Assembly (NCBI RefSeq): GCF_036365525.1
Contig: NC_090395.1
Span: 71,253,232-71,317,231, forward strand
Reading direction: 5' to 3'
DNA from: Heterodontus francisci
Taxonomy: Eukaryota
Length of the DNA stretch: 64,000 bases
The notes under the pieces are model-generated. The model was not told the origin of the DNA. It did not search any database and saw only the letters and a list, made by a program, of their open reading frames with translations. A program made the translations under genes and the position numbers. Shown here one piece after another: positions 2,664 to 61,228 of the stretch; within the stretch, counting starts at the first letter, position 1, and each line of letters opens with the position of its first letter.

Positions 2664-2896
2664 AAAAACAAGAAATGCTGGAACCACTCAGCAGGTCTGG
2701 CAGCATCTGTGGAAAGAGAAGCAGAGTTAACGTTTCGGGTCAGTGACCCTTCTTCGGAAGGGTCGAAGAAGGGTCACTGACCCGAAACGTTAACTCTGCT
2801 TCTTTTTCCACAGATGCTGCCAGACCTGCTGAGTGGTTCCAGCATTTCTTGTTTTTATTTCAGATTTCCAGCATCTGCAGTATTTTGCTTTTACTA
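2664..2896. mobile_element. Fold-back Penelope-terminus element with hammerhead motif (copy A)
   Basis: Two inverted ~95 bp arms matching the PLE 3' end at 12535-12669. 12-bp TSD TAACCGGGAGAT at 2652-2663 and 2897-2908. Confidence 0.9.
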
Positions 2897-3961: not shown

Positions 3962-4165
3962 AGGTCAGGCAGCATCTGTGGAGAGAGAAAGAAAGTTAAC
4001 GTTTCAGGTCAATGACTTTTTATCAGAAAGGTTCTGATGAAAGGTCATTGACCTGAAATGTTAGATCTCTTTCTCTCTCCACATGTGTTGCCTGACTTGC
4101 TGAGCATTTCCAGCATTTTCTACTTTTAGTTCAGATTCTCAGCATCTACAGTATTTTCCTTTTGT
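3962..4165. mobile_element. Older fold-back Penelope-terminus element (copy B)
   Basis: Inverted arms around ~4030 and CTGATGA-A-AGGTC-ATT-GACCT-GAAA at 4034-4058. The possible TSD is degenerate. Confidence 0.8.
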
Positions 4166-4849
4166 AAAGTATATTTGGTAATGTGAGAGAAATAGAACAG
4201 TCAGATTGTACAATAGCATATCAATCTGAAATGTAAAGATAGTCATTGCTAGATTTAAAATCTAGACTAAAGGGTTTAGTGGAGGAAGGCCCTTGTGAAT
4301 ATTTGGTCTAATCCTTTCATAATAGTGAATCTACCATTTGCCCTTTACATATTTCAAAGCCAGCCTTGAAGGCATGTGGACCTCATTTTATCGCCCATAT
4401 GATGGATAACAACTCTGACAAAACAGGACTCCGTCAGCACTGCACATTATGTGCTCAAGTCCTGCTCTCTAGTTCAAAGCCCAGAACCTTCTAACCCAGA
4501 GAAAGAGTACTCCCAGATTGCAGCCATACTTAGAAGGATCGTGGATTGGAGAATTATGATTGCAGCTCTATCTATGATCATGCTATCAAGCTGGCATCGA
4601 ATGAACTGTTGTGGGTAGGCTGGATTTGGCACGAGTTTTGTCTTCCATTGTTTGTAAGTAATCTTAGGCGCTGAATTTACTCTTGTATGTGTCTGGAACT
4701 ACTTGAGCGAGAATTTAGATCAAGCAATTTATACATCTAAGGCACTAATATTATGACAAAGGCCACAAGTCTAACCATGGGTGTTGCTTGGGGACCATTC
4801 TGAGGATTGCTGTAACTTAAATGGGACATTACATTGTGTATACATCACT

Positions 4850-8583: not shown

Positions 8584-9134
8584 GGCTAACTTTTCCCATC
8601 CGATCAGAGCTGTTAAGATATAAGGCTTAGCAACAGCATTTACCCAATGGAGAAGACCCTTCTCTAGGTGTCCTAGTGGTACATTATGATAAGAACAGGA
8701 GGAGGCCATTCAGCCCCTTAAGCCTGTTCTTACATTCAATTAGGTCCTGACTGATCTGTATCTTAACTCTGTTTTTCTGCCTTGGTTCTGTAACCCTTAA
8801 TACAGGCAGGGTAGGACTCACAGCAAGTTTATTTTACACCAAACAGAGTCTAGTTAAGCAGCACATGACAGCAAACAATCTACAGAGTCTACTCAAAAAG
8901 TGTCTCTACAAATTTCAGTAAACAGAATTTGTGACTGAAACCCCAGCAATGTTTCCTGATCCATGCAGGACGATGCTTCCAGCAAAATGCAGTGAGTGGA
9001 GGAAGGTTGCATAGTACAAATTAGGTGCATAAAGTCAATCCCAGTCAGTTAGAGCAGTGCAGTCTCCAGGCGTGATTGACAGGTCCATTACTCAATCATC
9101 ACTATTCTGTTGGGAATAGTGGTGTCACTAAATA

Positions 9135-9231
9135 AAAACAAGAAATGCTGGAAATACTCAGCAGGTCTGGCAGCATCTGTGGAGAGCGAAGCAGAGTTAA
9201 CGTTTCAGGTCCGTGACCCTTCATCAGAACT
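9135..9231 (-). mobile_element. Single-arm Penelope-terminus element with canonical hammerhead core (copy C)
   Basis: Minus strand 9231-9195 reads AGTT-CTGATGA-A-GGGTC-ACG-GACCT-GAAACGTT-AACT. ACTAAATA is duplicated at 9127-9134 and 9229-9236. Confidence 0.85.
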
Positions 9232-10277
9232 AAATATGCAGCTCTGAAAATCTGCCCATGCTCAAGGTCTGTGCCCTGTTAAATAGACAACACATTGTAC
9301 ATCTTTGTGGAACTTGGGTTTTAAAGTGTCCTCTAATAAACCCTTACACTAGCTTTGAAAGAGGTGAATGTAGGATGACAGAATGCTATATTTGGCTGTG
9401 TCCTGTTATTTCTGCTTGTTGTGCAGTCCACAATATGCCACATCTGTGAGTTTTCTGTGAATCAAGAACAAACGAGACCCAAGGAGCTTAAGGGAACTCT
9501 GATTAGATTTTTAAAAGCAATTCTGTTCTGTAACAGCCAATCTGCTGCTAAAATATAACCTGCCATTGGAGTAGGGGTTAGAGTGAAGTATAGTTTGAAG
9601 CAAATAGAGGTGGAATTCAAAATGTTTCTTTCCCTCTTCCAGTGAAGGATATGCTTCAGTGGTCGGAGAGAATGAAAGAAACAATCGCATTGCAACATTT
9701 TCAACAAGGCTCATCAATGACAGATTGGACAAGACAAGAAGCCCTAGACCCCCAATCTTGACCCTTTTGCCCCTGCTTTCCACCCCCGCCCCCCCCCCCC
9801 CCCACCCCACCATGCCTAATGTGGATGGAGCTTGCGGGGGTGGGGGGTGTGGTTAAAATGACCAAGTCACCTAGCATTGTGTCACTCCCCATTTTAACAG
9901 GCGCATTCTAGCCAGCTCACAAGGCCTCATTGAAATTCAAAAGTCAGCGTTATGACCCTGATTATATTTTAACAATGGACAGTTTTGACACATTGCTTGA
10001 GCATTTTCTCAAGAAACTTGCTGCTCTTCTGCAAATAATTATCTCTGAAAGATATATGGCTAGATTTATCCTCCAGCTGTAGAGGGAGATGCTGAGAGAG
10101 GTCAGTAGAGGATTGTGCCAGAGCTTCCGCCCACTATCATGACCCCCATCACAACCTCAGTCACATCACCAACCTGCCTTGATGGTTTGTAGCTCCTTAA
10201 CCGTGCAGGCCCAAACATGGAGTCTCTGTCAATGAGGAAAATGTAGCAGAGTGATACTGCAGTGCCAGGAAGAGGAA

Positions 10278-12000: not shown

Positions 12001-12534
12001 ACTTTCTCCCTTTTTCAGCCGCATGCACCTGTATTTGATGCAAAAATAAAACTTCTGAAATCATCCGATGCTTCAGTTATTCCACAGATGGTGTTGGCTC
12101 CTTTAGGCACTGAATAATGAATCTACATGACGTTTCTATACAGCTTGGTGTATCACTAAATCCTTTCATCATATCTATTTCAAATCTCCCTTTCTCTGAA
12201 TCATAATCGTCTTTACCTGTCAGTTATATAAAGCTCTGATCAGACCCCGTCTGGAGTAACTGCATTCAGTTCTGGGCACTGTGCCTCAGGATGGATATTC
12301 TGGCCTTGGAGGGAGAACAGCACAGATTCATCACAATGATACCAGGGCTGAAAGGGTGATATTAGGAGGACAGTTTGCATAGACTAGGCTTGTATTCCCT
12401 CAAGTATAGAATATTAAGGAGTGATCACATTGAGGGGTTTTGATTAAAAGATTTGATAGGGTAGATAGAGAGAAACTCTGGCAAGGTAGGCTAGACGGGA
12501 ATGCATGAACACAATCACAGGTAATGTCCAGAAA

Positions 12535-14705
12535 TAAAAGCAAAATACTGCGGATGCTTGAAATCTGAAATAAAAACAAGAAATGCTGGAACCACTCAGC
12601 AGGTCTGGCAGCATCTGTGGAAAGAGAAGCAGAGTTAACGTTTCGGGTCAGTGACCCTTCATCGGAACTGACAAATATTAGAAAAGTCACAGGTTATAAG
12701 CAAGTGAGGTGGGGGTGGGGCAAGAGATAACAAAGGAGGTCTAGATTGGGCCAGGCCACATAGCTGACCAAAAGGTCACGGAGCAAAGGCAAGCAATATG
12801 TTAATGGTGTGTTGAAAGACAAAGCATTAGTACAGATTAGGTGTTAATACACTGAATATTGAACAGCAGCAAGTGCAAACCTGAAAAAAAAACAGTGGGT
12901 AAGCAAACTGAACAAACTAAGATGAAATGAACTAAATGCAAAAAAAAAGATTGTAAAAAATGTAAAAAAGAATGTAAAAAAAAAAGGAAGAAAAAAATAA
13001 CTAAAAATGAAAATAAAATGGGGGGCTGTCATGCTCTGAAATTATTGAACTCAATGTTCAGTCCGACAGGCTGTAGTGTGCCTAATCGGTAGATGAGATG
13101 CTGTTCCTCGAGCTTGCGTTGATGTTCACTGGAACACTGCAGCAATCCCAGGACAGAGATGTGAGCATGAGAGCAGAGGGAAGTGTTGAAATGGCAAGCA
13201 ACCTGAAGCTCAGGGTCCTGCTTGCGGACTGAGCGGAGATGTTCCGCAAAGCGGTCACCCAGTCTGCGCTTGGTCTCCCCAATGTAGAGGAGACCACATT
13301 GTGAGCAGCGAATACAGTATACTACATTGAAAGAAGTACAAGTAAATCGCTGCTTCACCTGAAAGGAGTGTTTGGGGCCTGGGATAGTGAGGAGAGAGGA
13401 GGTAAATGGGCAGGTATTACACCTCCTGCGATTGCAGGGGAAGGTGCCATGGGACGGGGACGAGGTGGTGGGGGTAATGGAGGAGTGGACCAGGGTGTCA
13501 CGGAGGGAACAATCCCTTCGGAATGCTGACAGGGGAAGGGAGGGGAAGATGCGACTAGTAGTGGCATCACGCTGGAGGTGGCGGAAATGGCGGAGGATGA
13601 TCCTTTGGATATGGAGGTTGGTGGGGTGAAAAGTGAGGACAAGGGGAACCCTGTCACGGTTCTGGGAGGGAGGGGAAGGGATGAGGGTAGAGGTGCGGGG
13701 AATGGGCCGGACACGGTTGAGGGCCCTGTCAACCACAGTGGGGGGAAATCCTCGGTTGAGGAAAAAGGAGGTCATATCAGAAGCACCGTCATGGAAGGTA
13801 GCATCATCAGAGCAGATGCGTCGGAGACGGACAAACTGGGAGAATGGAATGGAGTCCTTACAGGAGGTAGGGTGTGAAGAAGTGTAGTCGAGGTAGCTGT
13901 GGGAGTCGGTGGGCTTATAATGGATATTAGTAGACAACCTATCCCCAGAGATGGAGACAGAGAAGTCGAGGAAGGGAAGGGAAGTGTCAGAGATGGACCA
14001 TGTAAAGGTGAGAGAAGGGTGGAAATTGGAAGTAAAGTTGATAAAGTTTTCCAGTTCGGGGCGGGAGCAGGAAATGGCACCGATACAGTCATCGATGTAC
14101 CGGAAAAAGAGTTGGGGGAGGGGGCCTGAGTAGGACTGGAACAAAGAATGCTCGACATATCCCACAAAAAGACAGGCATAACTAGGACCCATGCGGGTAC
14201 CCATAGCAACACCTTTTACTTGAAGGAAGTGCGTGGAGTTGAAGGAGAAGTTGTTCAATGTGAGATCAAGTTCAGCCAGGCGGAGGAGGGTGGTGGTGGA
14301 TGGGGACTGGTTGGGCCTCTGTTCCAGGAAGAAGCGGAGAGCCCTCAACCCATCCTGGTGGGGATGGAGGTGTAGAGCGATTGGACATCCATAGTGAAGA
14401 GGAGGCGGTTGGGACCAGGAAACTGGAAATTGTCAAAATGACGTAGGGCGTCAGAAGAGTCATGGATGTAGGTGGGAAGAGACTGGACCAGCGGAGAAAA
14501 GATAGAGTCAAGATAGGAAGAAATAAGTTCAGTGGGGCAGGAGCAGGCTGACACAATGGGTCTGCCGGGTCAGTCCCGTTTGTGGATTTTGGGAAGGAGG
14601 TAGAAGCGGGCTGTCCGGGGTTGTGGGACTATGAGGTTGGAAGCTGTAGAGGGAAGATCTCCAGAGGAGATGAGGTCAGTGACAGTCCTTTGGACGGTCA
14701 TGCCA
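12535..14705 (-). mobile_element. Penelope-like element (Neptune-type), 5'-truncated: RT plus GIY-YIG endonuclease, with 3' terminus
   Basis: RT motifs FTMDVQSLYTSIP, GVAMGTRMGPSYACLF and RYIDD. Cys linker PCNRRRCNTCP and GIY-YIG VVYCIRCSQCGLLYIGETKRRLGDRFAEH..GLN. One frameshift near 14350, stop at 13029. 13-bp TSD TAATGTCCAGAAA at 12522-12534 and 14706-14718. Confidence 0.95.
12633..12669 (-). ncRNA. Minimal type I hammerhead-like motif in the PLE terminus (variant core CCGAUGA)
   Basis: AGTT-CCGATGA-A-GGGTC-ACT-GACCC-GAAACGTT-AACT. PLE termini are known to carry minimal hammerheads. Confidence 0.65.
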
Positions 14706-15384
14706 TAATGTCCAGAAACACTTCTTCCCACAAAAAATTGTGAAAATCTGGAACTCTCTCCCCCAAAAAGCTGCGAGTCTGGGGGTCAATTGAAAATTTC
14801 AAAATGGAGGTTAATACATTTTTTTTTTGGTAAGGATTATAGAACCAAGGCAAGTAAATAGAGTTAAGACACAGCTAAGCCATGATCTAACTGAATGGCA
14901 GAACAGACCTGAGGTACCAAATGGCCTCCTCCTGTTCCTACGTGCCACATGCAGGAAATAAGGAGGAGAATGAACAAAGAGTTGACAATGGTCCTCACTC
15001 ACTCCCAGGATGCTCCATTGGTGTACCACCTACTTTGCGGTTACCTTCCGACCTCAGCTGGTAATTGCAGCACCTGCTATAGAAGTGAGACATGACATTA
15101 AGGGCTGTAGATGCTGTATATCACAGTGCCATACACTCATAAACCAGCTCCCCATTCCACCACAGCTCCCCAAATCAGTCATGCCATATCCCCTATCCCA
15201 AATTCCAAACATGACTCCTATAGTGAAAGTTGAAATGTTTAAGATTATGGCCACATACTGTGGGTGGGAGGTTGTGATCCCAATGTAGAGAATGTAGCCA
15301 GGCTTCCATTGTCTCAGCTTTCATTATAGCAGTAGACTAGATCTGGAGTGTGCAGTGGCTGCACTTTTAAAGAAATAAAAGGAA

Positions 15385-15899: not shown

Positions 15900-16113
15900 A
15901 TAAAAGCAAAATACTGCAGATGCTGGAAATCTGAAATAAAAACAGAAAGTGCTGGAAATACTCAGCAGACCAGGCAGCATCTGTGGAGAGAAAAGCAGAG
16001 TTAACACTTCAGAATTCTGATGAAAGGTCACAGACCTGAAACGTTAACTCTGCTTCACTCTCCACAAATGCTGCCAGACCTGTTGAATATTTCCAGCATT
16101 TTCTGTTTTTATT
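15900..16113. mobile_element. Fold-back Penelope-terminus element (copy E)
   Basis: Inverted arms with canonical CTGATGA-A-AGGTC-ACA-GACCT-GAAACGTT-AACTC at 16017-16050. TSD CCAYAAATGTCAAA at 15886-15899 and 16114-16127. Confidence 0.85.
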
Positions 16114-17917: not shown

Positions 17918-19697
17918 CTAAGTGAGTCTGGGGAATTAATAATGGATAATAAGGAGATGGCAGATGAATTGAACAGATATTTTGCATCGGTCTTCACTAT
18001 TGAGGATACAAGTAACATCCCAGTATTAGCTGTGAGTCAGGAAATGGAAGGGAGGGAAGAATTGAAGAAAATTACAATCACCAGGGAAGTGGTACTGAAC
18101 AACTTGTTGGAGCTGCGGGCTGACAAGTCCGTGGGTCCTGATGGACTTCATCCTAGGGTGTTAAATGAAGAGGCTAGTGAGATAGTTGATGCGTTAGTTT
18201 TAATTTTCCAAAATTCCCTAGATTCGGGGAAGGTTCCATTAGATTGGAAAATAGTGAATGTAATTCCTTTATTCAAAAAGGGAGGGAGAGAGAAAGCAGG
18301 AAACTACAGTCCAGTTAGTTTAACATCTGTCTTAGGGTAAATGTTAGAAGCTATTATTAAAGACGTTATAGCAGGGCATTTAGAAAAATTCAGGGGAATC
18401 AGGCAGAGTCAACATGGTTTTGTGAAAGGGAAATCATGTTTAACCAATTTATTGGAGTTCTCAGAGGGAGTTACATGTGCTATGGATAAAGGGGAACCAG
18501 TGGATGTACTGTCCTTAAATTTCCATAAGGCATTTGATAAGGTGCCACATCAAAGGTTATTGCAAAAAATAAAAGCTCATGGTGTAGGGGGTAACATACT
18601 GGCATGGATAGAAGATTGGCGAGCCAACAGGAAACAGAGACTAGACATAAATGGGTCATTTTCTGATTGGCAAGATGTGACGAGTGGTGTGCTACAGGGA
18701 TCTGTGCTGGGGCATCAACTTTCTACAATTTATATAAATGACTTGGATGAAGGGACCAAAGGTATGGTTGCTACATCTGCTGATGACACAAAGATAGGTA
18801 GGGAAGTAACTTGTGAAGAGGACATAAGGACGCTACAAAGGGATATAGATAGGTTAAGTGAGTGGGCAAAGACCTGGCAAATGCAGTATAATGTGGGAAA
18901 GTGTGAAATTGGCCACCTTGACAGGAAGAATAAAAAAGAAGCATATTATCTAACTGGTGAGAGATTACAGAGCTCTGAGATGCAGAGGGATCTGGGTGTC
19001 CTAGTGCATGAATCACAAAAGGTTAGTATGCAGGTACAGCACGTAACTAGGAAAGCTAACAGAATGTTATCATTTATCGCGAGCGGAATTGAATACAAAA
19101 GTAGGGAGGTTATGCTTCAGCTATACAGGACATTGGTGAGACCACAACTGCAGTACTGTGTACAGTACTGGTCTCCTTATTTAAGGAAGGATGTAAATGC
19201 ATTGGAGGCAGTACAGAGAAGGTTTACCAGACTGATACCTGGAATGGGTGGGTTGTCTTACAAGGAAAGATTGGACAGTTTAGGCTTGTATCCGTTGGAG
19301 TTTAGAAGAGTAAGAAGCAACTTGATTGAAACATATAAGATCCTGAGGGGTCTTGACAGGGTGGATGTGGAAAGGATGTTTCCTCTTGTGGGAGAATCTC
19401 GAACTAGGATTCACTGTTTAAAAATAAGGGGCCGCCCATTTAAGACAGAGATGAGGAGAAATTTTTTCTCTCAGAGGGTCGTGAGTCTTTGGAATTCTCT
19501 TCCTCAAAAGGCAGTGGAAGCAAAGTCTGAATATTTTTAAGGCAGAGGTAGATAGATTCTTGATAAGCAAGGGGGTGGAAGGTTATCGGGGGTAGGTGGA
19601 AATGCGGAGTAATCAGTTCAGCCATGAACTTATTGAATGGCGGAGCAGGCGCCAAGGGCCGAGTGGCCTACTCCTGCTCCTAATTCGTATGTTTATA
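17918..19697 (+). mobile_element. CR1 LINE, 5'-truncated ORF2 (RT) pseudogene
   Basis: ORFs 17942..18340 and 18341..19540 are one frame with an internal stop: GPDGLHPRVL, QHGFVKGKSCLTNLLEF, KAFDKVPH, QGSVLG, SADDTK. Confidence 0.95.
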
Positions 19698-21699: not shown

Positions 21700-22650
21700 G
21701 TTTCAAATTCCGCCCCCCCCCCCCCCTCTTTAATTCTACAACTAATACTACATTAACCGAGAAAACCAGTCGTGAAGGGAGCAGTGATTCTCGCAGTGCA
21801 ACAGATCCAATGGCTCCCCTCAGCCCAGCCAAGGTGAGTTTTCAGCCGCTCTCCTCGGGACCTTTACACCCATGTGTTCTATTAGCCCCATGGGAAGGTA
21901 TCCTCATTCTGATCCTTGCATAGAAGGCGCCTGTTGTTCGTGCGCGTTGAGAAATAGATTGAATCAGTGAAAGATAATCATGTCTCTCGGTTTCGGTGTA
22001 GATAATCCAGCCTGCAATAGGGTAGAAGCTTTCACCCTGGTTATATATACAGCATCTAACAGGTTGTGAATTGTAAAGGTTGGATCGTCCCCTCCCCCAC
22101 CCCCCCCCCCCCCCCCCCCCCCGCCCCCCTCTCTCTCTCTCTCTCTCTCACTCTCTCTCTGTCATACTACGTCTCTATGGGCTAGGTACAGTGGCTCAGA
22201 GGCACCGCCAGAGCCGAGGGAGACCACTGTCCATCATTCCAGGCTAAACATGCCATCACAACCCTGACCCGCCTATCGCAGCCGTGCCATTTAAAGTAGA
22301 GAACGACAGAGAGCGAGAGAGAGAGAGAGAGAGAGAGAAGGTAATAAGTCAAACATTTGGAAATAACCATAATAAAACATAAACCTGTTACCTTAGCCTG
22401 CGAGCAAAGTAAGTAGAGGGGAAAAAAATCCGTGACGACCAAGCACAAAAAGGCAGTGACACCGGCGGGACTGGCGCAGCTGATTCTGTGCGCTGACTTC
22501 TCGCTCCTCTTGACTGTATCTTCACCTGGCTCCTCGCTACTGCGGGATTTACCTTCCCATTGAAGAGTTTTTTATTTAAATTCTTTTGTCCTCGAGAAGA
22601 AGGATTGTCCCTGTAAGCAAGACTGAGTCTCCCTCCCATTCCCAAGGTAA
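21700..22650 (+). promoter_or_regulatory. KCND3: Probable KCND3 promoter and non-coding first exon(s)
   Basis: Repeat-poor, locally CpG-richer region upstream of the acceptor at 23400. Consensus donors AAG|GTGAGT (21833/21834) and AAG|GTAAGC (22646/22647). The TSS cannot be determined from sequence. Confidence 0.45.
22089..22338. repeat. Poly-C tract and (CT)n, followed by (GA)n microsatellite
   Basis: C runs at 22089-22128, (CT)n at ~22128-22160 and (GA)n at ~22308-22338. Confidence 0.9.
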
Positions 22651-23439: not shown

Positions 23440-24588
<1,149 letters not shown>

Positions 24589-25571
24589 TAGGTCCTATTT
24601 TTTCACCCTTTGTTGTGATTGATACATATCAGTTTTCCAAACGCTACCCTGTCTCCGTGTGAGACCATTGGCTCCAATGTTCAACATGTATGTTTACCCA
24701 AGTGGCGCCTGCCTCAATAATCAAGAAATTGTGCGGATTTTTACAAGGCACTAACGTTATTCAGCTTTCAAAATAATCTTTAATTAATAGATGATAAACG
24801 CGCCTTTTATTTAGTAACATGGGGCAAAGCGTTGAAAGTAGAAAGGATTAACTAAATATCGCCTTAGCTCCAGAATACAGGTATAACTTGGTTGATTTGA
24901 CGAACAATCTGGATATTTGTAATTACATTCTCAGAATTAGCACTGTTTAATCTCCTTTTCTAAGCAGTACCAGGCATTACCAATAGTTATTGCATCGCAC
25001 TGAAACAGAAAGGCAGGACCAGATATTAATCTTCGTCAGGCAGGGAATGAGAAAGTTTATTTCACAAGGAGACTGTGCAAACGAATGAGTGAAAAATGAC
25101 ACGTAGGCTGTTAGAACTTAAACGGTGCTTATGTCTCTCTTAGTTACTGGCCATTTTCCCTAGTTACTGCACGCTTCCACTATAAGGCAATGGGTTAAAA
25201 GCCATCCCTAGAGCATTTTATCTATTGTAACACCAACTCTTGTATTTCATTTAATCAAGAAGGAACATAGAAAAAGCACTTGTAATTTCTGCTGTTCATA
25301 AAACGGTCTGTATAGCGCAATAAGACGATAGATTTTCTTGCAATAAAGGGCTGACTTGCTTTGAGAAAAGATCAGGCTGTCTATATAATCTGACAGATGT
25401 TTCGACGATATACAATGTGACACACACAAATAAAAATGTTTTCTCAGAACTCTCGGGCTAATGACCTTGAGGCTTATTTGTTGGAGTGAGAAGACTTATG
25501 ACAACAGTAATAAAGTTTTTACAAGAGAACTTCGTGGCTGAAGTGCTACCTGGTGTTGAATGCTGATTACA

Positions 25572-26599: not shown

Positions 26600-28480
26600 A
26601 AGAAAGATAAGGCAGAAGCATTTGCAACAATCTTCAGCCAGAAGTGCCGAGTTGATGATCCATCTCGGCCTCCTCCTGAAGTCCCCAGCATTACAGATGC
26701 CAGACTTCAGCCAATTTGATTCACTCCACGTGATATCAAGAAACGACTGAAGGCACTGGATACTACAAAGGCTATGGGTCCTGACAATATTCCAGCAATA
26801 GTACTGAAGACCTGTGCTCCAGAACTTGCCGCACCCCTAGCCAAGCTGTTCCAGTATAGCTCCAACACTGGCATCTACCCGACAATGTGGAAAATTGCCC
26901 AGGTATGTCCTGTACACAGAAAGCAGGACAAGTCCAACCCGTCCAATTACCGCCCCATCAGTTTACTCTCAATCATCAGCAAAGTGATGGAAGGTGTCAT
27001 CAACAGTGCAATCAAACGGCACTTGCTTAGCAATAACCTGCTCAGTGATACCCAGTTTGATTTCCAACAGGACCACTCAGCACCTGACCTCATTACAGCC
27101 TTGGTTCAAAAATGGACAAAAGAGCTGAACTCAAGAGGTGAGGTGAGAGTGACTGCCCTTGACATCAAGGCAGCATTTGACCGAGTATGGCATCAAGAAG
27201 CCCTAGCAAAACTGAGGTCAATGGGAATCAAGCGGAAAAATCTCTGCTGGTTAGAGTCATACCTAGCGCAAAGGAAGATGGCTGTGGTTGGTGGAGGTCA
27301 ATCATCTGAGCTCCAGGACATCACAGCAGGAGTTCTTCAGGGTAATATCCATCTTCAGCTGCTTCATCAATGACCTTCCTTCAATCATAAGGTCAGAAGC
27401 GGGGATAAAAACAAAAAATGCTGGAAACACTCAGCAGGTCTGGCAGCATCTGTGGAAAGAGAAACGTTAACTCTGCTTCTCTTTCCACAGATGCTGCCAG
27501 ACCTGCTGAGTGGTTCCAGCATTTCTTGTTTTAATTTCAGAATTCCAGCATCCGCAGTATTTTGCTTTCATTATTATTACAGAAGTGGGGATGTTCGCTG
27601 ATGATTGCACAATGTTCAGCACCATTCCTGACTCCTCAAATACTGAAGCGGTCTGTATAGAAATGCAGCAAGACCTGGACAATATCCAGGCTTGGGCTGA
27701 TAAGTGGCAAGTAACATTTGCGCCACACAAGTGCCAGGCAATGACCATCTCCAACAAGAGAGAATCTAACCATCGCCCTTTGACATTCAATGGCATTACC
27801 ATCGCTGAATCCCCCACTATCAACATCCTAGGGGTTACCATTGACCAGAAACTGAACTGGAGTAGCCATATAAATACCGTGACTACAAGAGCAGGTCAGA
27901 GGCCAGGAATCCTGCAGCGAGTAACTCACTTCCTGACTCCTCAAAGCCTGTCCACCATCTACAAGGCACAAGTCAGGAGTGTGATGGAATACTCTCCACT
28001 TGCCTGGATGGGTGCAGCTCCAACAACACTCAAGAAGCTCGACACCATCCAGGACAAAGCAGCCCACTTGATTGGCACCCCATCCACAAACATTCACTCT
28101 CTCCACCACTGACGCACAGTGGCAGCAGTGTGTACCATCTACAAGATGCACTGCAGCAACGCACCAAGGCTCTTTAGACAGCACCTTCCAAACCCGTGAC
28201 CTCTACCACCTTGAAGGACAACGGCATCAGAAGCATGGGAACACCACCACCTCCAAGTCACACACCATCCTGACTTGGAACTATATCGCCATTCCTTCAC
28301 GGTCGCTGGGTCAAAATCCTGGAACTCCCTTCCTAACAGCACTGTGGGTGTACCTACCTCACATGGACTGTGGCGGTTCAAGAAGGCAGCTCACCACTAC
28401 CTTCTCAAGAGCAATTAGGGATGGGAAATAAATGCTGGCATAGCCAGTGATCCCCACTTCCCATGAATTAATAAAAAAAA
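26600..28480 (+). mobile_element. LINE family B, 5'-truncated RT region with poly-A end
   Basis: GPDNIP, NYRPISLLS, ALDIKAAFDRVWH and MFADD motifs; 3' end ..CCCATGAATTAATAAAAAAAA. Confidence 0.92.
27407..27579. mobile_element. Fold-back Penelope-terminus element (copy F) inserted in the LINE RT
   Basis: Inverted arms with most of the hammerhead core absent at the junction. TSD CAGAAGYGGGGAT at 27394-27406 and 27580-27592. Confidence 0.88.
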
Positions 28481-36733: not shown

Positions 36734-36969
36734 AATAAAAGCAAAATACTGCGGATGCTGGAAATCTGAAACAAAAACAAGAAATGCTGGATTCACTCAG
36801 CAGGTCTGGCAGCATCTGTGGAAAGAGAAGCAGAGTTAACGTTTCGGGTCAGTGACCCTTCTTCGGAATGTTCCGAAGAAGGGTCACTGACCCGAAACGT
36901 TAACTCTGCTTCTCTTTCCACAGATGCTGCCAGACCTGCTGAGTGAATCCAGCATTTCTTGTTTTTGTT
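36734..36969. mobile_element. Fold-back Penelope-terminus element (copy G), perfect hairpin
   Basis: Arms 36770-36868 and 36871-36969 are reverse complements with a TG spacer. 15-bp TSD TAAAGGCTTTAAAGA at 36719-36733 and 36969-36983. Confidence 0.93.
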
Positions 36970-37977: not shown

Positions 37978-40510
37978 ATCATAGAATCATAGAACGGTAA
38001 CTGCACAGAAGGAAGCCTTTCTTCATGTCATGTTGTTGTCGACTGTCTGTAAGAGCTGCTCAGCGAGTCCAACTCCCTTTTCTATTCCCTGTAGCCTTGC
38101 AAATTTTTTCTGTTCAGGTAACTATCCAAGTCCCCTTTGAAAGCCGCGATTGAATCTGTCTCACAGAAGCACGGAATCACAGAATAATACAGTGCAGAAG
38201 AGGTCCTTCGGCCCTTCGCCCCATCGAGTCTGCACCGATGCATTAAAACACCTGACCTGTCTACCTAATCCCTTTTGCGCTTGGCCCATAGCCTTAAATG
38301 TTATGACGTGCCAAGTGCTCATCCAGGTACTTTTTTAAAGGATGTGAGGCAACCTGCATCTACCACCTTCCCAGGCAGGGCATTCCAGACCGTCACCACC
38401 CTCTGGGTAAAAAAGTTCTTCCTCAAGTCGCCCTTAAACCTCCCGCCCCTCACCTTAAACTTGTGACCCCTCGTAACTGACCCTTCAACTAAGGGGAACA
38501 GCTGCTCCCTATCCACCCTGTCCATGCCCCTCATAATCTTGTACACCTCGATCAGATCACCCCTCAGTCTTCTCTGCTCCAGCAAAAACAACCCGAGCAT
38601 ATCCAACCTCTCTTCATAGCTTAAATGTTCCATCCCAGGTAGCATCCTGGTGAATCGCCTCTGCACCCCCTCCAATGCAATCACATCTTTCCTGTAATGT
38701 GGCGATCAGAATTGCACACAGTACTCCAGCTGTGGCCTTACCAAAGTTCTGTACAACTCCAACATGACCTCCCTGCTTTTGTAATCTATGCCTCGATTGA
38801 TAAAGGCAAGTGTCCCATATGCCTTTTTCACCACCCTATTTACCTGCCCTACTGCCTTCAGAGATCTATGGACAAACACGCCAAGGTCCCTTTATTCCTC
38901 AGAACTTCCCAGTGTCAGGCCATTCATTGAATACTTCCATGTCACATTACTTCTTCCAAAGTTTATCACCTCACACTTTTCAGCGTTAAATTCCATCTGC
39001 CACTTTTCTGCCCATTTGACCATCCCGTCTATATCTTCCTGTAACTTAAGACACTCCACCTCACTGTTAACCACTCGGTCAATCTTTGTGTCATCCGCGA
39101 ACTTACTGATCCTACCCCCCACATAGTCATCTATGTCGTTCATATAAATGACAAACAATAGGGGACCCAGCACAGATCCCTGTGGTACACCACTGGACAC
39201 TGGCTTCCAGTCACTAAAACAGCCGTCTGTCATCACTCTCTGTCTCCTACAGCTAAGCCAATTTTGAATCCACCTTACCAAGTTACCTTGTATCCCATGT
39301 GCATTTGCTTTCTTGATAAGTCTCCCATGTGGGACCTTGTCAAAGGCTTTGCTGAAATCCATGTAAACTACATCAACTGCACTACCCTCGTCTACACACC
39401 TGGTCACATGCTCAAAAAATTCAATCAAATTTGTTAGGCATGACCTCCCTCTGCCAAAGCCATGCTGACTATTTCATATCAAATTTTGCCTCTCCAAGTG
39501 GAAATAGATTCTCTCCTTCAGAATTTTCTCCAATAGTTTCCCTACCAGTGACGTAAGACTCACTGGTCTGTAGTTCCCTGGCTTATCTCTACAACCTTTC
39601 TTAAATAGTGGGACCACATTAGCTGTTCTCCAGTCCTCTGGCACCTTCCCTGTGGCCAGAGAGGAATTAAAAATTAGGGTCAGAGCCTCTGCAATCTCCA
39701 CCCTCGCCTCCCACAGCATCCTGGGACATAAATCGTACAGATCTGGAGATTTGTCCACTTTTAAGCCTTCCAAAACCTCCAATATCTTGTCACTCCCTAT
39801 GACAATTTGCTCAAGAACCTCACAGTCTCTCTCTCTCTAAGTTCCATATCTACATCCTCATTCTCTTGGGTGAAGACAGATGTGAAGTATTCATTCAACA
39901 CCCTACCAATGTCCTCTGGCTCTACCCACAAATTTCCCCCTTGGTCCCTAATGGGTCCTACTCTTTCCTTGGTTATCATCTTCCCATTGATATACTTATA
40001 GAATATCTTGGGATTTTTCCTACTTTTACCAGCCAGAGCTTTCTCATATCCCTTCTTTGCTCTCCTAATTGCTTTCTTAAGCTCCAGTTATCACCAGACT
40101 CTCAGACAGTTCTTTCCAGAATGTTGAGAGCAGATTTGATGGAGGTGTTCAAAATTATGAGGGGTCCAGACAGAATAGATAGCGAGAAACTGTTCCCATT
40201 GGTAGAAGAGTCGAGAACCAGAGGTCACCGACTGTAAGTGATCAGGAAAAGAACCAGAGGCGACATGAGAAAAACCTTTTTACGCAAGAATGGGTAGGTT
40301 CTGGAATGCACTGCCTGAGAGTGTGGTGGAGGCAAATTCAATTGTGGCTTTTGAAAGGGAATTGGATAACTATCTGAAGAGAACAGATTTGCAGGGCTAT
40401 GGGGAAAAGGCAAGGGGGTGGAACTAGCTGAGTTGCTCTTGCAGTAAACCAGCATGGACACGATGGGCCGAATGACCACCTGTGTTGCAGCCCTTCTATG
40501 ATTCTATGTT
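37978..40510. mobile_element. CR1 cluster: tail (-), long RT fragment 38162-40088 (-), 3' fragment 40120-40510 (+)
   Basis: VDVVYMDFSKAFDKVPH, GVPQGSVLGPLLF and KFADDTK in ORFs 38319..38684, 38892..39428 and 39474..39782. Confidence 0.92.
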
Positions 40511-53172: not shown

Positions 53173-54765
53173 GGGTGGCACAATGGCGCAGTGGTTAGCA
53201 CCGCAGCCTCACAGCTCCAGCAACCCGGGTTCAGTTCTGGGTACTGCCTGTGCGGAGTTTGCAAGTTCTCCCTGTGTCTGTGTGGGTTTCGGCTGGGTGC
53301 TCTGGTTTCCTCCCACAGCCAAAGACTTGCAGGTTGATAGGTAAATTGGCCATTGTAAATTGCCCCTAGTGTAGGCAGGTGGTAGGAGAATGGTGGGGAT
53401 GTGGTAGGGAATATGGGGTTAATGTAGGATTGGTATAAAGGGGTGGTTGTTGATCAGCACAGACTTTTTTTTTAGAACATTACAGCGCAGTACAGGCCCT
53501 TCGGCCCTCGATGTTGCGCCGACCTGTGAAACCATCTGACCTACACTATTCCATTTTCATCCATATGTCTATCCAATGACCACTTAAATGCCCTTAAAGT
53601 TGGCGAGTCTACTACTGTTGCAGGCAGGGCGTTCCACGCCCCTACTACTCTCTGAGTAAAGAAACTACCTCTCACATCTGTCCTATATCTATCACCCCTC
53701 AACTTGAAGCTGTGTCCCCTCGTGTTTGCCATCACCATCCGAGGAAAAAGACTCTCACTATCCACCCTATCCAACCCTCTGATTATCTTATATGTCTCTA
53801 TTAAGTCACCTCTCCTCCTCCTTCTCTCCAACGAAAACAACCTCAAGTCCCTCAGCCTTTCCTCGTAAGACCTTCCCTCCATACCAGGCAACATCCTAGT
53901 AAATCTCCTCTGCACCCTTTCCATAGCTTCCACATCCTTCCTATAATGCGGTGACCAGAACTGCACGCAATACTCCAGGTGCGGTCTCACCAGAGTTTTG
54001 TACAGCTGCAGCATGACCTCGTGGCTCCGAAACTCGATCCCCCTACTAATAAAAGCTAACACACCATATGCCTTAACAGCCCTATTAACCTGGGTAGCAA
54101 CCTTCAGGGATTTATGCACCTGGACACCAAGATCTCTCTGTTCATCTACACTACCAAGAATCTTCCCATTAGCCCAGTACTCTGCATTCCTGTTACTCCT
54201 TTCAAAGTGAATCACCTCGCACTTTTCCGCATTAAACTCCATTTGCCATCTCTTAGCCCAGCTCTGCAGCCTATCTATGTCCCTCTGTACCCTACAACAT
54301 CCTTCGGCACTATCCACAACTCCACCGACCTTAGTGTCATCCGCAAATTTACTAACCCACCCTTCTACACCCTCTTCCAGGTCATTTATAAAAATGACAA
54401 ACAGCAGTGGCCCCAAAACAGATCCTTGCGGTACACCATTAGTAACTAAACTCCAGGATGTACATTTGCCATCAATCACCACCCTCTGTCTTCTTTCAGC
54501 TAGCCAATTTCTGATCCAAAGCTCTAAATCACTTTCAACCCCATACTTCCGTATTTTCTGCAATAGCCTACCGTGGGGAACCTTATCAAACGCCTTACTG
54601 AAATCCATATACACCACATCCACTGCTTTACCCTCATCCACCTGTTTGGTCACCTTCTCGAAAAACTCAATAAGGTTTGTGAGGCACGACCTACCCGTCA
54701 CAAAACCGTGCTGACTTGGTGGGCCGAAGGGCCTGTTTCAGTGCTGTATCTATAAATAAAAAAAA
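53173..54765 (+). mobile_element. HE1-type V-SINE split by a CR1 insertion
   Basis: HE1 sequence 53173-53466 resumes at 54713; GACTT is duplicated at the junctions. Confidence 0.88.
53467..54712 (-). mobile_element. Young 5'-truncated CR1 LINE (uninterrupted 386-codon RT frame)
   Basis: ORF 53541..54701 with DFSKAFDKVPH, GVPQGSVLGP and FADDTK; short tail ending in an A run. Confidence 0.95.
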
Positions 54766-59566: not shown

Positions 59567-60827
59567 TTTTTTTTTAATGCATTCATGGGATGTGGGCGTC
59601 GCTGGCCAGGAGAGCATTTATTGCCCATCCCTAATTGCCCTTGAGAAGGTGGTGGTGAGCTGCCTTCTTGAACCGCTGCAGTCCATTTGGGGCAGGTATA
59701 CCCACAGTGCTGTTAGGAAGGGAGTTCCAGGATTTTGACCCAGCGACAGGGAAGGAATGGCGATATAGTTCCAAGTCAGGATGGTGTGTGACTTGGAGGG
59801 GAACTTGCAGGTGCTGGTGTTCCCATGCATTTGCTGCCCTTGTCCTTCTAGTTGGTAGAGGTCGCGGGTTTGGAAGGTGCTGTCTAAGGAGCCTTGGTGC
59901 CTTGCTGCAGTGCATCTTGTAGATGGTACACACTGCTGCCACTGTGCGTCGGTGGTGGAGGGAGTGAATGTTTGTGAATGGGGTGCCAATCAAGTGGGCT
60001 GCTTTGTCCTGGATGGTGTCGAGCTTCTTGAGTGTTGTTGGAGCTGCGCTCATCCAGGCAAGTGGAGGGTATTCCATCACACTCCTGACTTGTGCCTTGT
60101 AGATGGTGGACAGGCTTTGGGGAGTCAGGAGGTGAGTTACTCGCCACAGGATTCCTATTCTCTGACCTGCTCTTGTAGCCACGGTATTTATATGGCTACT
60201 CCAGTTCAGTTTCTGGTCAATGGTAGCCCCTAGGATGTTGATAGTGGGGGATTCAGCGATGGTAATGCCCAGGGGAGATGTTTTGATTCTCTCTTGTTGG
60301 AGATGGTCATTGCCTGGCACTTGTGTGGCGCGAATGTTACTTGCCACTTATCAGCCCAAGCCTGGATATTGTCCAGATCTTACTGCATTTCTACACGGAC
60401 TGCTTCAGTATCTGAGGAGTCACGAATGGTGCTGAACATTGTGCAATCATCAGCGAGCATCCCCACTTCTGACCTTATGATTGAAGGAAGGTCATTGATG
60501 AAGTAGCTGAAGATAGTTGGGCCTAGGTCACAACCCTGAGGAACTCCTGCAGTGATGTCCTGGAGCTCAGTTGATTGACCTCCAACAACCACAACCATCT
60601 TCCTTTGCGCTAGGTATGACTCCAGCCAGCGGAGGGTTTTCCCCCTGATTCCCATTGACCTCAGTTTTGCTATGGCTCCTTGATGCCATACTCGGTCAAA
60701 TGCTGCCTTGATGTCAAGGGCAGTCACTCTCATCTCACCTCTGGAGTTCAGCTCTTTTGTCCATGTTTGAACCAAGGCTGTAATGAGGTCAGGAGCTGAG
60801 TGGCCCTGGCGGAGCCCAAACTGAACG
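59567..60827 (-). mobile_element. LINE family B, 5'-truncated, inserted in the right-hand LTR
   Basis: QFGLRQGHSAPDLIT, ALDIKAAFDRVWH and MLADD motifs. LTR homology resumes on both sides. Confidence 0.92.
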
Positions 60828-61228
60828 TTGCAACACAAAAGTTTCTTTAGCAATTTCTTTTGTACTCTAATGCTAGGGAGCGACAAGATAGTATACTGAC
60901 AGTAGCTTACAGTCCAATTAGTATTTGTTTTAGGCCACAATACCCTATCAAATATGGAGTCCTTTGTTTGAAAAAGTCCAGTCCGGCAACGTCAATCTTC
61001 TTTAAACTTCCTTCAATCAGTTTCCATCAGTTGGGGGTTTTTGGGGACGGTTCTTTACCCTCCAGTCTCCGGCTTGACTCGGCTGTATTGGCATTGTTCC
61101 AAACAAGTTTGTGCCTTTAGCCCACCAGCCATTGTTTGTTGTTAGTACCTTATCAAACCTCGTTAATTCTCAAGGCTCAAGAACTGTTCCCTCGTTTCAA
61201 GCACAGGTGTTTCATCTCTGAACACTAT

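Follow-up and report, generated by a model that had tools for sequence, protein, structure and literature searches.

Background

Minimal hammerhead ribozymes (min-HHRs) have been described in Penelope-like elements (PLEs) of metazoans, and the published model holds that they have to act as dimers, monomers being inactive and dimers only weakly active (PMC4209133). The hammerhead of a lizard PLE cut only with the element protein present, and two internal reverse-transcription starts of a lizard PLE were shown in vitro (PMC11167929). Among the genomes reported to carry non-LTR retrozymes there is one chondrichthyan (bioRxiv 10.64898/2026.07.22.740005). The role of the PLE hammerhead is still described as open (PMC8557442, PMC11167929).

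Here we analyze a hammerhead motif in a stretch of 64,000 nucleotides from Heterodontus francisci, referred to as the window, in which a family of short PLE-derived copies is present. The account that we favor, with a probability of roughly three in four, is that the motif is a minimal PLE hammerhead carried in a stump of about 100 bases, that it is likely inactive, and that its stump was likely copied from the 5' end of an element RNA that had not been cut. The min-HHR of metazoan PLEs is reportedly also the subject of a study by Lunse et al. from 2016. In the literature searched, which included few subscription papers, no description of such a PLE hammerhead from a shark or other elasmobranch was found, and a shark row was not found in the one supplement file of PMC4209133 that was searched.

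Results

The hammerhead motif at 9195-9231

An earlier note on this DNA had reported a minimal hammerhead at this place without naming a strand. The motif is present and lies on the minus strand, which reads AGUU-CUGAUGA-A-GGGUC-ACG-GACCU-GAAA-CG-UU-AACU from 9231 to 9195 (Table 1). The core CUGANGA...GAAA...UH is complete, helix I has 4 bp and helix II 5 bp, and the predicted cut after GUU accords with the standard hammerhead numbering. A degenerate 28-nt pattern derived from the window copies matched nine places in the window with up to 3 mismatches and none in 100 shuffles, and a structural descriptor was passed by four window copies and by nothing in 30 shuffles. The stem II closing pairs and loops that had been quoted for the copies at 2771, 4042, 12633, 16025 and 36881 were correct on re-reading. 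The stem I AGUU/AACU, on the other hand, is complete at 9195 and 12633 but at no other window copy, and at 9195 its AGU falls inside the 8-bp target-site duplication, so that it may be target-derived.

The Rfam search that had been proposed as a check gave no hammerhead match, either in the whole window at E<=1 or in 9150-9280 at E<=10, a miss probably caused by the absence of stem III. With the palindromes Rfam returned only fold-back miRNA-type matches below the gathering score.

Table 1. Features of the PLE family in the window; coordinates are window positions, TSD is target-site duplication
Feature	Coordinates	Strand	Remarks
Minimal type I hammerhead (min-HHR) motif	9195..9231	-	sequence and structure descriptor
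Stem I of 9195 motif	9231-9228/9198-9195	-	
Core C3-A9 of 9195 motif	9227-9221	-	
Extra A of 9195 motif	9220	-	
Stem II of 9195 motif, G.U closing pair	9219-9215/9211-9207	-	
GAAA of 9195 motif	9206-9203	-	
Palindromic ACGU of 9195 motif	9203-9200	-	
Predicted cut of 9195 motif	between 9199 and 9198	-	
Solo PLE stump: hammerhead and ~65-nt downstream part, short 3' end	9127..9236	-	8-bp TSD 9127-9134 / 9229-9236
Parent PLE copy, 5'-truncated, long 3' end	12535..14705	-	15-bp direct repeat (1 mismatch) 12522-12536 / 14706-14720
RT (YIDD), CX4CxxC linker and GIY-YIG frame	13029..14432	-	upstream frameshift and stop; 5'-truncated
Parent hammerhead, complete 4-bp stem I, with U4C and G10.1-C11.1	12633..12669	-	
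Parent predicted cut site	12636	-	
Optional ~34-bp tail between two 3' ends	12535..12569	-	
Putative core promoter: TATA-like TATAAC and initiator-like TCAGTT	12666..12698	-	pattern match; presumed function
Head-to-head inverted pair, C4/G-C subfamily	2664..2894	.	14-bp TSD; arms differ at 1/93 sites
Older inverted pair, U4/A-U subfamily	3963..4170	.	~10-bp TSD; arms differ at 10/67 sites
Inverted pair, U4/A-U subfamily, left arm ends inside stem II	15900..16113	.	14-bp TSD; arms differ at 9/67 sites
Inverted pair without hammerhead core	27407..27579	.	13-bp TSD; arms differ at 3/55 sites
Young inverted pair, C4/G-C subfamily	36734..36968	.	perfect 15-bp TSD; arms identical, 0/96

The parent copy and related PLE loci

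The motif had been placed among the minimal type I hammerheads of PLEs, those in which stem III is a palindromic ACGU. This was right: the parent copy carries an RT and GIY-YIG frame, and the same motif occurs in relatives. The parent hammerhead lies about 360 nt past the stop of that frame, which is the location expected of a pLTR. The frame shows the motifs YIDD and VVYC...YIGET, and its linker CNRRRCNTC, at residue 333 of 467, fits the CX2-5CxxC feature given for Neptune/Nematis (PMC8557442). Its GIY-YIG Pfam match is weak (E 8e-4, below the cut-off); its homologues include 111 longer proteins, up to 56% identical and most of them annotated PF00078. A full-length member of the family was not obtained, the parent in the window being 5'-truncated. 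Scans with DNA patterns gave no match in viral contigs or in metagenome contigs, and when viral contigs were scanned at the protein level no relative emerged.

The search for related motifs covered metagenome loci that encode related proteins (the best 80 of 240) and gave 13 strict motifs. The extra A and G10.1 occur in all 13, and stem III is palindromic in 12, features for which the descriptor did not ask; the cleavage triplet is GUC in 11 of the 13 and GUU in the window copies, and U4C recurs in one related locus (L025). Twenty-two loci reach the end of the frame, and after removal of five with too little flank a motif was present 92-143 nt downstream of the frame in 9 of 17 (shuffled mean 1.05) and absent downstream in the other 8. 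Both sides of 7 of the 10 stem pairs change among 15 motifs (3 from the window and 12 of the 13 strict ones), a count inflated by the choice of motifs with a stem-requiring descriptor. Genuine covariation appears only against invertebrate relatives. Taken with the parent frame, the motif at 9195-9231 is almost certainly a minus-strand minimal hammerhead of a PLE.

Two of the related loci, L023 and L040, have terminal direct repeats. Apparently full-length PLE frames were noted at L040:323-3406 (1049 codons) and L023:319-3726 (1139 codons), counted from stop to stop; both overlap the hammerhead, and the first AUG in L040 is that inside CUGAUGA. In the parent copy, pyrimidine-rich, acceptor-like words ending in CAG/ were seen on the minus strand at 12593-12626 and 12555-12575, the former followed directly by an ATG whose frame is open to the end of the copy.

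Stem II variation and subfamilies

Compensatory stem II changes across copies had been claimed. The closing pair 10.1-11.1 does covary, being G.U at 9195, G-C in 5 of the 9 core-holding arms and A-U in 3, but it is only one of five stem II pairs and it tracks subfamilies; the only other stem II difference among these arms, found in a decayed one, is a single unpaired substitution. The nine arms fall into three linked haplotypes: C4 with G-C (five arms), U4 with G.U (one, the 9195 copy) and U4 with A-U (three). Since position 4 is perfectly linked with the closing pair, the variation is a subfamily difference, which amounts to about one event and not to repeated compensation. CpG decay is unlikely as the main cause of the C4/U4 and C11.1/U11.1 differences, as the sites are perfectly linked in 9/9 arms and no change is seen at G5 or G12, although it may apply to the lone G.U copy.

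The same comparison shows a core change that had gone unmentioned: the G-C copies have CCGA (U4C) in place of CUGAUGA, four of the five together with A7. The near-identical pairs (0/96 and 1/93 differences) are C4/G-C, whereas the A-U pairs differ at 10/67 and 9/67 sites, indicating that it is the younger subfamily that carries U4C, a change reported to lower hammerhead activity in vitro considerably (PMC3088659). The extra A is present in 9/9 arms and ACGU in 8/9. Nor could the core be distinguished firmly from its flank in conservation: non-majority cells number 2/90 in the core and 24/333 in the tail (Fisher p = 0.09, with rows that are not independent). At parent position 12637, in the cleavage triplet, about a quarter of the depth in run X18, which is from another species, reads GUC instead of GUU, compared to 0.3% in run X1.

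Solo and inverted insertions in the window

Eleven short arms in the window match the end of the parent with 78-98% identity, namely the solo 9195 copy and the arms of five head-to-head pairs. Target-site duplications of 8-15 bp surround 7/7 window insertions. Each of the five pairs has exactly one long-tailed arm, the pair junctions are heterogeneous and usually lie at the hammerhead edge, and the inverted-pair units measure about 170-235 bp and have no ORF.

Among the surroundings of these insertions, the plus strand carries at 23440-24591 a large potassium-channel exon of the Shal type (Kv4/KCND), with Pfam matches to Shal-type, BTB_2 and Ion_trans; with this exon and its many LINE fragments the window has the look of vertebrate DNA. 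Downstream of the exon, probably in an intron of the channel gene, are the pairs at 27.4 kb and 36.7 kb, which would fold into perfect RNA hairpins of about 60-100 bp, possible editing substrates. The pair at 27407-27579 is inserted within a LINE reverse-transcriptase fragment. Such fragments were seen at 18341-19540 (+), 53541-54737 (-), 38892-39836 (-), 26720-28112 (+) and 59631-60991 (-), and RVT_1 was confirmed for the first (18341-19537). A fold-back of about 225 nt at 22121-22347 is unrelated to the PLE arms and gave weak miRNA-family matches on both strands.

The 5' boundary of the copies

The short arms begin at a preferred place. Eight of the 11 start at parent positions 12664-12669, within 6 nt at the edge of stem I, and the other three start elsewhere (about 12627-12645); the cut site is the 5' end of none of the 11. 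Evidence from public contigs was obtained by aligning four contig runs to positions 12500-13120 of the window, X1 and X5 coming from one sample; the RNA-labelled runs are no gauge of expression, as they consist of contigs and the copies ride in host transcripts. The rows listed leave a further 1154 loose-end, 62 joint and 63 variant rows, among which ends at the cut site may occur. Loose ends at 12667 were found in 92 contigs with an agreement of 0.35, the only heterogeneous upstream row among the rows listed (DNA run), indicating that no sequence is shared upstream. The summed depth across 12667/12668 falls 2.3-, 7.0-, 5.0- and 3.2-fold in the four runs, a step that is not clean because the depth is already declining from 12605-12625.

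The boundary coincides with a putative core promoter. On the minus strand TATAAC starts at 12698, 29 nt above TCAGTT, and stem I opens with the A of the latter word (12669); textbook values are used here for the initiator consensus and for the distance from TATA to start. The TATA-like word is imperfect, and its bases at 12694 and 12697 vary in run X18. Ten of 16 motifs have a TATA-like word in the 100 nt upstream of them (null mean 3.9), counted with a pattern widened to admit the window word; four of the ten belong to one invertebrate family (4 loci, TATAAA 37-38 nt above C3), and the remaining six motifs have no such word within that distance. In L023 and L040 the TATA and initiator words lie 45-80 nt upstream and would start an RNA about 45 nt above the core. 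We consider the chances even that the 5' boundary originates from a transcription start at or near stem I. Starts at the stem I edge, the lack of starts at the cut and the TATA/initiator words together make it likely that the stumps are cDNAs of an uncut 5' leader.

The heterogeneity of the pair junctions would also fit a process in which there is no RNA end at this place and reverse transcription stalls or switches template at a folded or protein-bound hammerhead, or primes itself by fold-back. The PLE protein is reported to assist hammerhead folding (PMC11167929), and self-priming has been proposed for head-to-head palindromes (PMC3846280). However, the ends lie beyond the motif and not at its 3' face, where a stall is expected, the isolated 9195 37-mer folds weakly (-7.3 kcal/mol, z -0.44, no stabler than shuffles), and the TATA/initiator spacing fits a start site, so that this explanation is unlikely.

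It is still less probable that the boundary is a 3' splice site (CTAAT...CAG/TT) and that spliced or splice-cleaved RNA gave rise to the stumps. The arms have no shared upstream exon sequence, as the contig agreement of 0.35 also indicates; no GT..AG joint into 12667 is present among the 15 of 77 joints listed; the one skip, 12667->12764, lies on a GTCAG microhomology; and AG is found at this place in 0/15 motifs from related loci. These observations are set against an AG/TT at 12668/12667 with CTAAT just upstream, the position of the loose ends at the first base past AG, and an intron of the Drosophila virilis Penelope that ends at helix I (PMC4209133).

3' ends and proposed mechanism of insertion

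Loose 3' ends recur in the public contigs at 12532-12536 and at 12569, about 34 nt apart, and these two ends match the two reverse-transcription starts of the lizard PLE (PMC11167929). Tail-to-tail joints of 12533 and 12536 with 12569, on opposite strands, were seen in 11 and 6 contigs of X1 and may represent insertion into the AT-rich end of the element or an assembly effect.

In the account of the stumps that we favor, transcription would start at or beside the first base of stem I, and the element protein would prime reverse transcription at two internal sites about 100 and 135 nt downstream. Reverse transcription running off the 5' end of the RNA would give stumps, and priming from both nicked strands would give head-to-head pairs in which one arm is long and the other short. 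In the source element the motif would act as a ribozyme of weak and conditional activity, with cutting after GUU limited to the double hammerhead and/or to the presence of the protein, and insertion would not need the cutting.

A more specific form of this account is tentative, and we judge the odds to be somewhat against it. The hammerhead would be the first part transcribed, the stumps would be cap-to-primer cDNAs of the uncut leader, the ribozyme would be a switch that removes a capped leader of 33 nt from the mRNA of the element itself, and the youngest subfamily would be weakened by U4C. If so, the mirror pairs would be two leader cDNAs primed on opposite strands, the hammerhead would act as a leader-removal switch and not as scissors for multimers, and the many stumps of the genome would preserve, like fossils, the position of the start site and the escape from cleavage.

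Predicted cleavage capacity of the copies

In a nearest-neighbour model the 9195 double hammerhead has -8.5 kcal/mol compared to -22.7 kcal/mol for the best dimer fold, and the parent double hammerhead -13.7 compared to -26.2 kcal/mol. Such models omit the tertiary contacts of the core, and the energies may point to weak hammerhead activity. In 5/7 insertions the motif lies opposite its own antisense copy, with predicted long hairpins of -95 to -202 kcal/mol that would bury it. An anti-ribozyme switch, in which 12690-12681 would pair with stem II, was rejected, since 17 of 100 shuffled upstream sequences were as good and the effect was not consistent among 10 related motifs.

A reading in which selection in place maintains the copies as functional ribozymes that cleave host or retrozyme-like transcripts as dimers, with stem II compensation reflecting this, would agree with core differences being rarer than tail differences. 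The solo 9195 and parent motifs are moreover same-sense and 3.4 kb apart, and head-to-tail joints, 12667->12559 in X5 and 12663->12535 in X6, each in a single contig, would set same-sense hammerheads about 110-130 nt apart, in a retrozyme-like manner. The core-tail difference, however, has p = 0.09, the stem II covariation is one subfamily event, most insertions are predicted hairpins, the double hammerhead is disfavored in the energy model, and the youngest pairs carry U4C with its reportedly lower activity in vitro (PMC3088659), all of which make selection in place very improbable. The 9195 copy is, very probably, an inert by-product of insertion.

A chance resemblance, in which a hammerhead-like word has arisen by accident in a repeat, is scarcely credible, for despite the lack of an Rfam match and an unremarkable fold energy the same core, extra A and ACGU palindrome stand at the same place in relatives with differing, covarying stems.

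Discussion

Copies that start at the first bases of the ribozyme, in a family of very high abundance, offer a cheap test of the role of the PLE hammerhead, and the coexistence of an older version (U4, A-U) with a younger one (C4, G-C) likewise permits such a test.

The motif resembles the min-HHR of metazoan PLE pseudo-LTRs described by Cervera and De la Pena (2014, PMC4209133) in being of type I with a short helix I, in the additional nucleotide that separates position 9 from 10.1, in the palindromic 15.2-16.2 without loop 3, and in its occurrence as single motifs scattered in truncated copies together with opposite-strand pairs. In the alignment of that paper a pufferfish row has the same CGUU end, and G.U and A-U closing pairs are found in the cichlid and coelacanth rows, the G10.1-C11.1 pair being conserved without being invariant. 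As to differences, helix II has 5 bp in the window motif, the youngest subfamily carries U4C, and the triplet is GUU as against the GUC of 11 of the 13 related motifs.

Poseidon PAc, the Anolis PLE studied by Frangieh et al. (2024, PMC11167929), likewise has a tail of 30-40 bp arising from two reverse-transcription starts. In that system both strands are extended, uncut RNA is the main substrate and the hammerhead lies at the 5' end of the ORF. The window PLE differs in its CX4CxxC linker, which is of the Neptune/Nematis type, and a clustering of 5' ends at stem I is not among the subjects discussed for PAc in the available text of that paper.

The insertions are similar to the units of EN+ PLEs with an inverted pLTR and a tail (PMC3846280, PMC8557442, PMC2377424), where a 5'-truncated copy is likewise inverted head to head, an optional tail is present on one side and the TSD is about 8-15 bp. 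Unlike these, the window units are reduced to about 170-235 bp, have no ORF and usually have their junction at the hammerhead edge; for short copies with an inverted pLTR, only PMC8557442 was found in the literature searched. Non-LTR retrozymes (bioRxiv 10.64898/2026.07.22.740005) are also non-autonomous, PLE-derived and provided with a type I hammerhead, but they consist of tandem same-sense units, whereas all copies in the window are solo or inverted. Motif, setting and layout of the insertions are of known kinds, and the locus adds one family to the class described in 2014.
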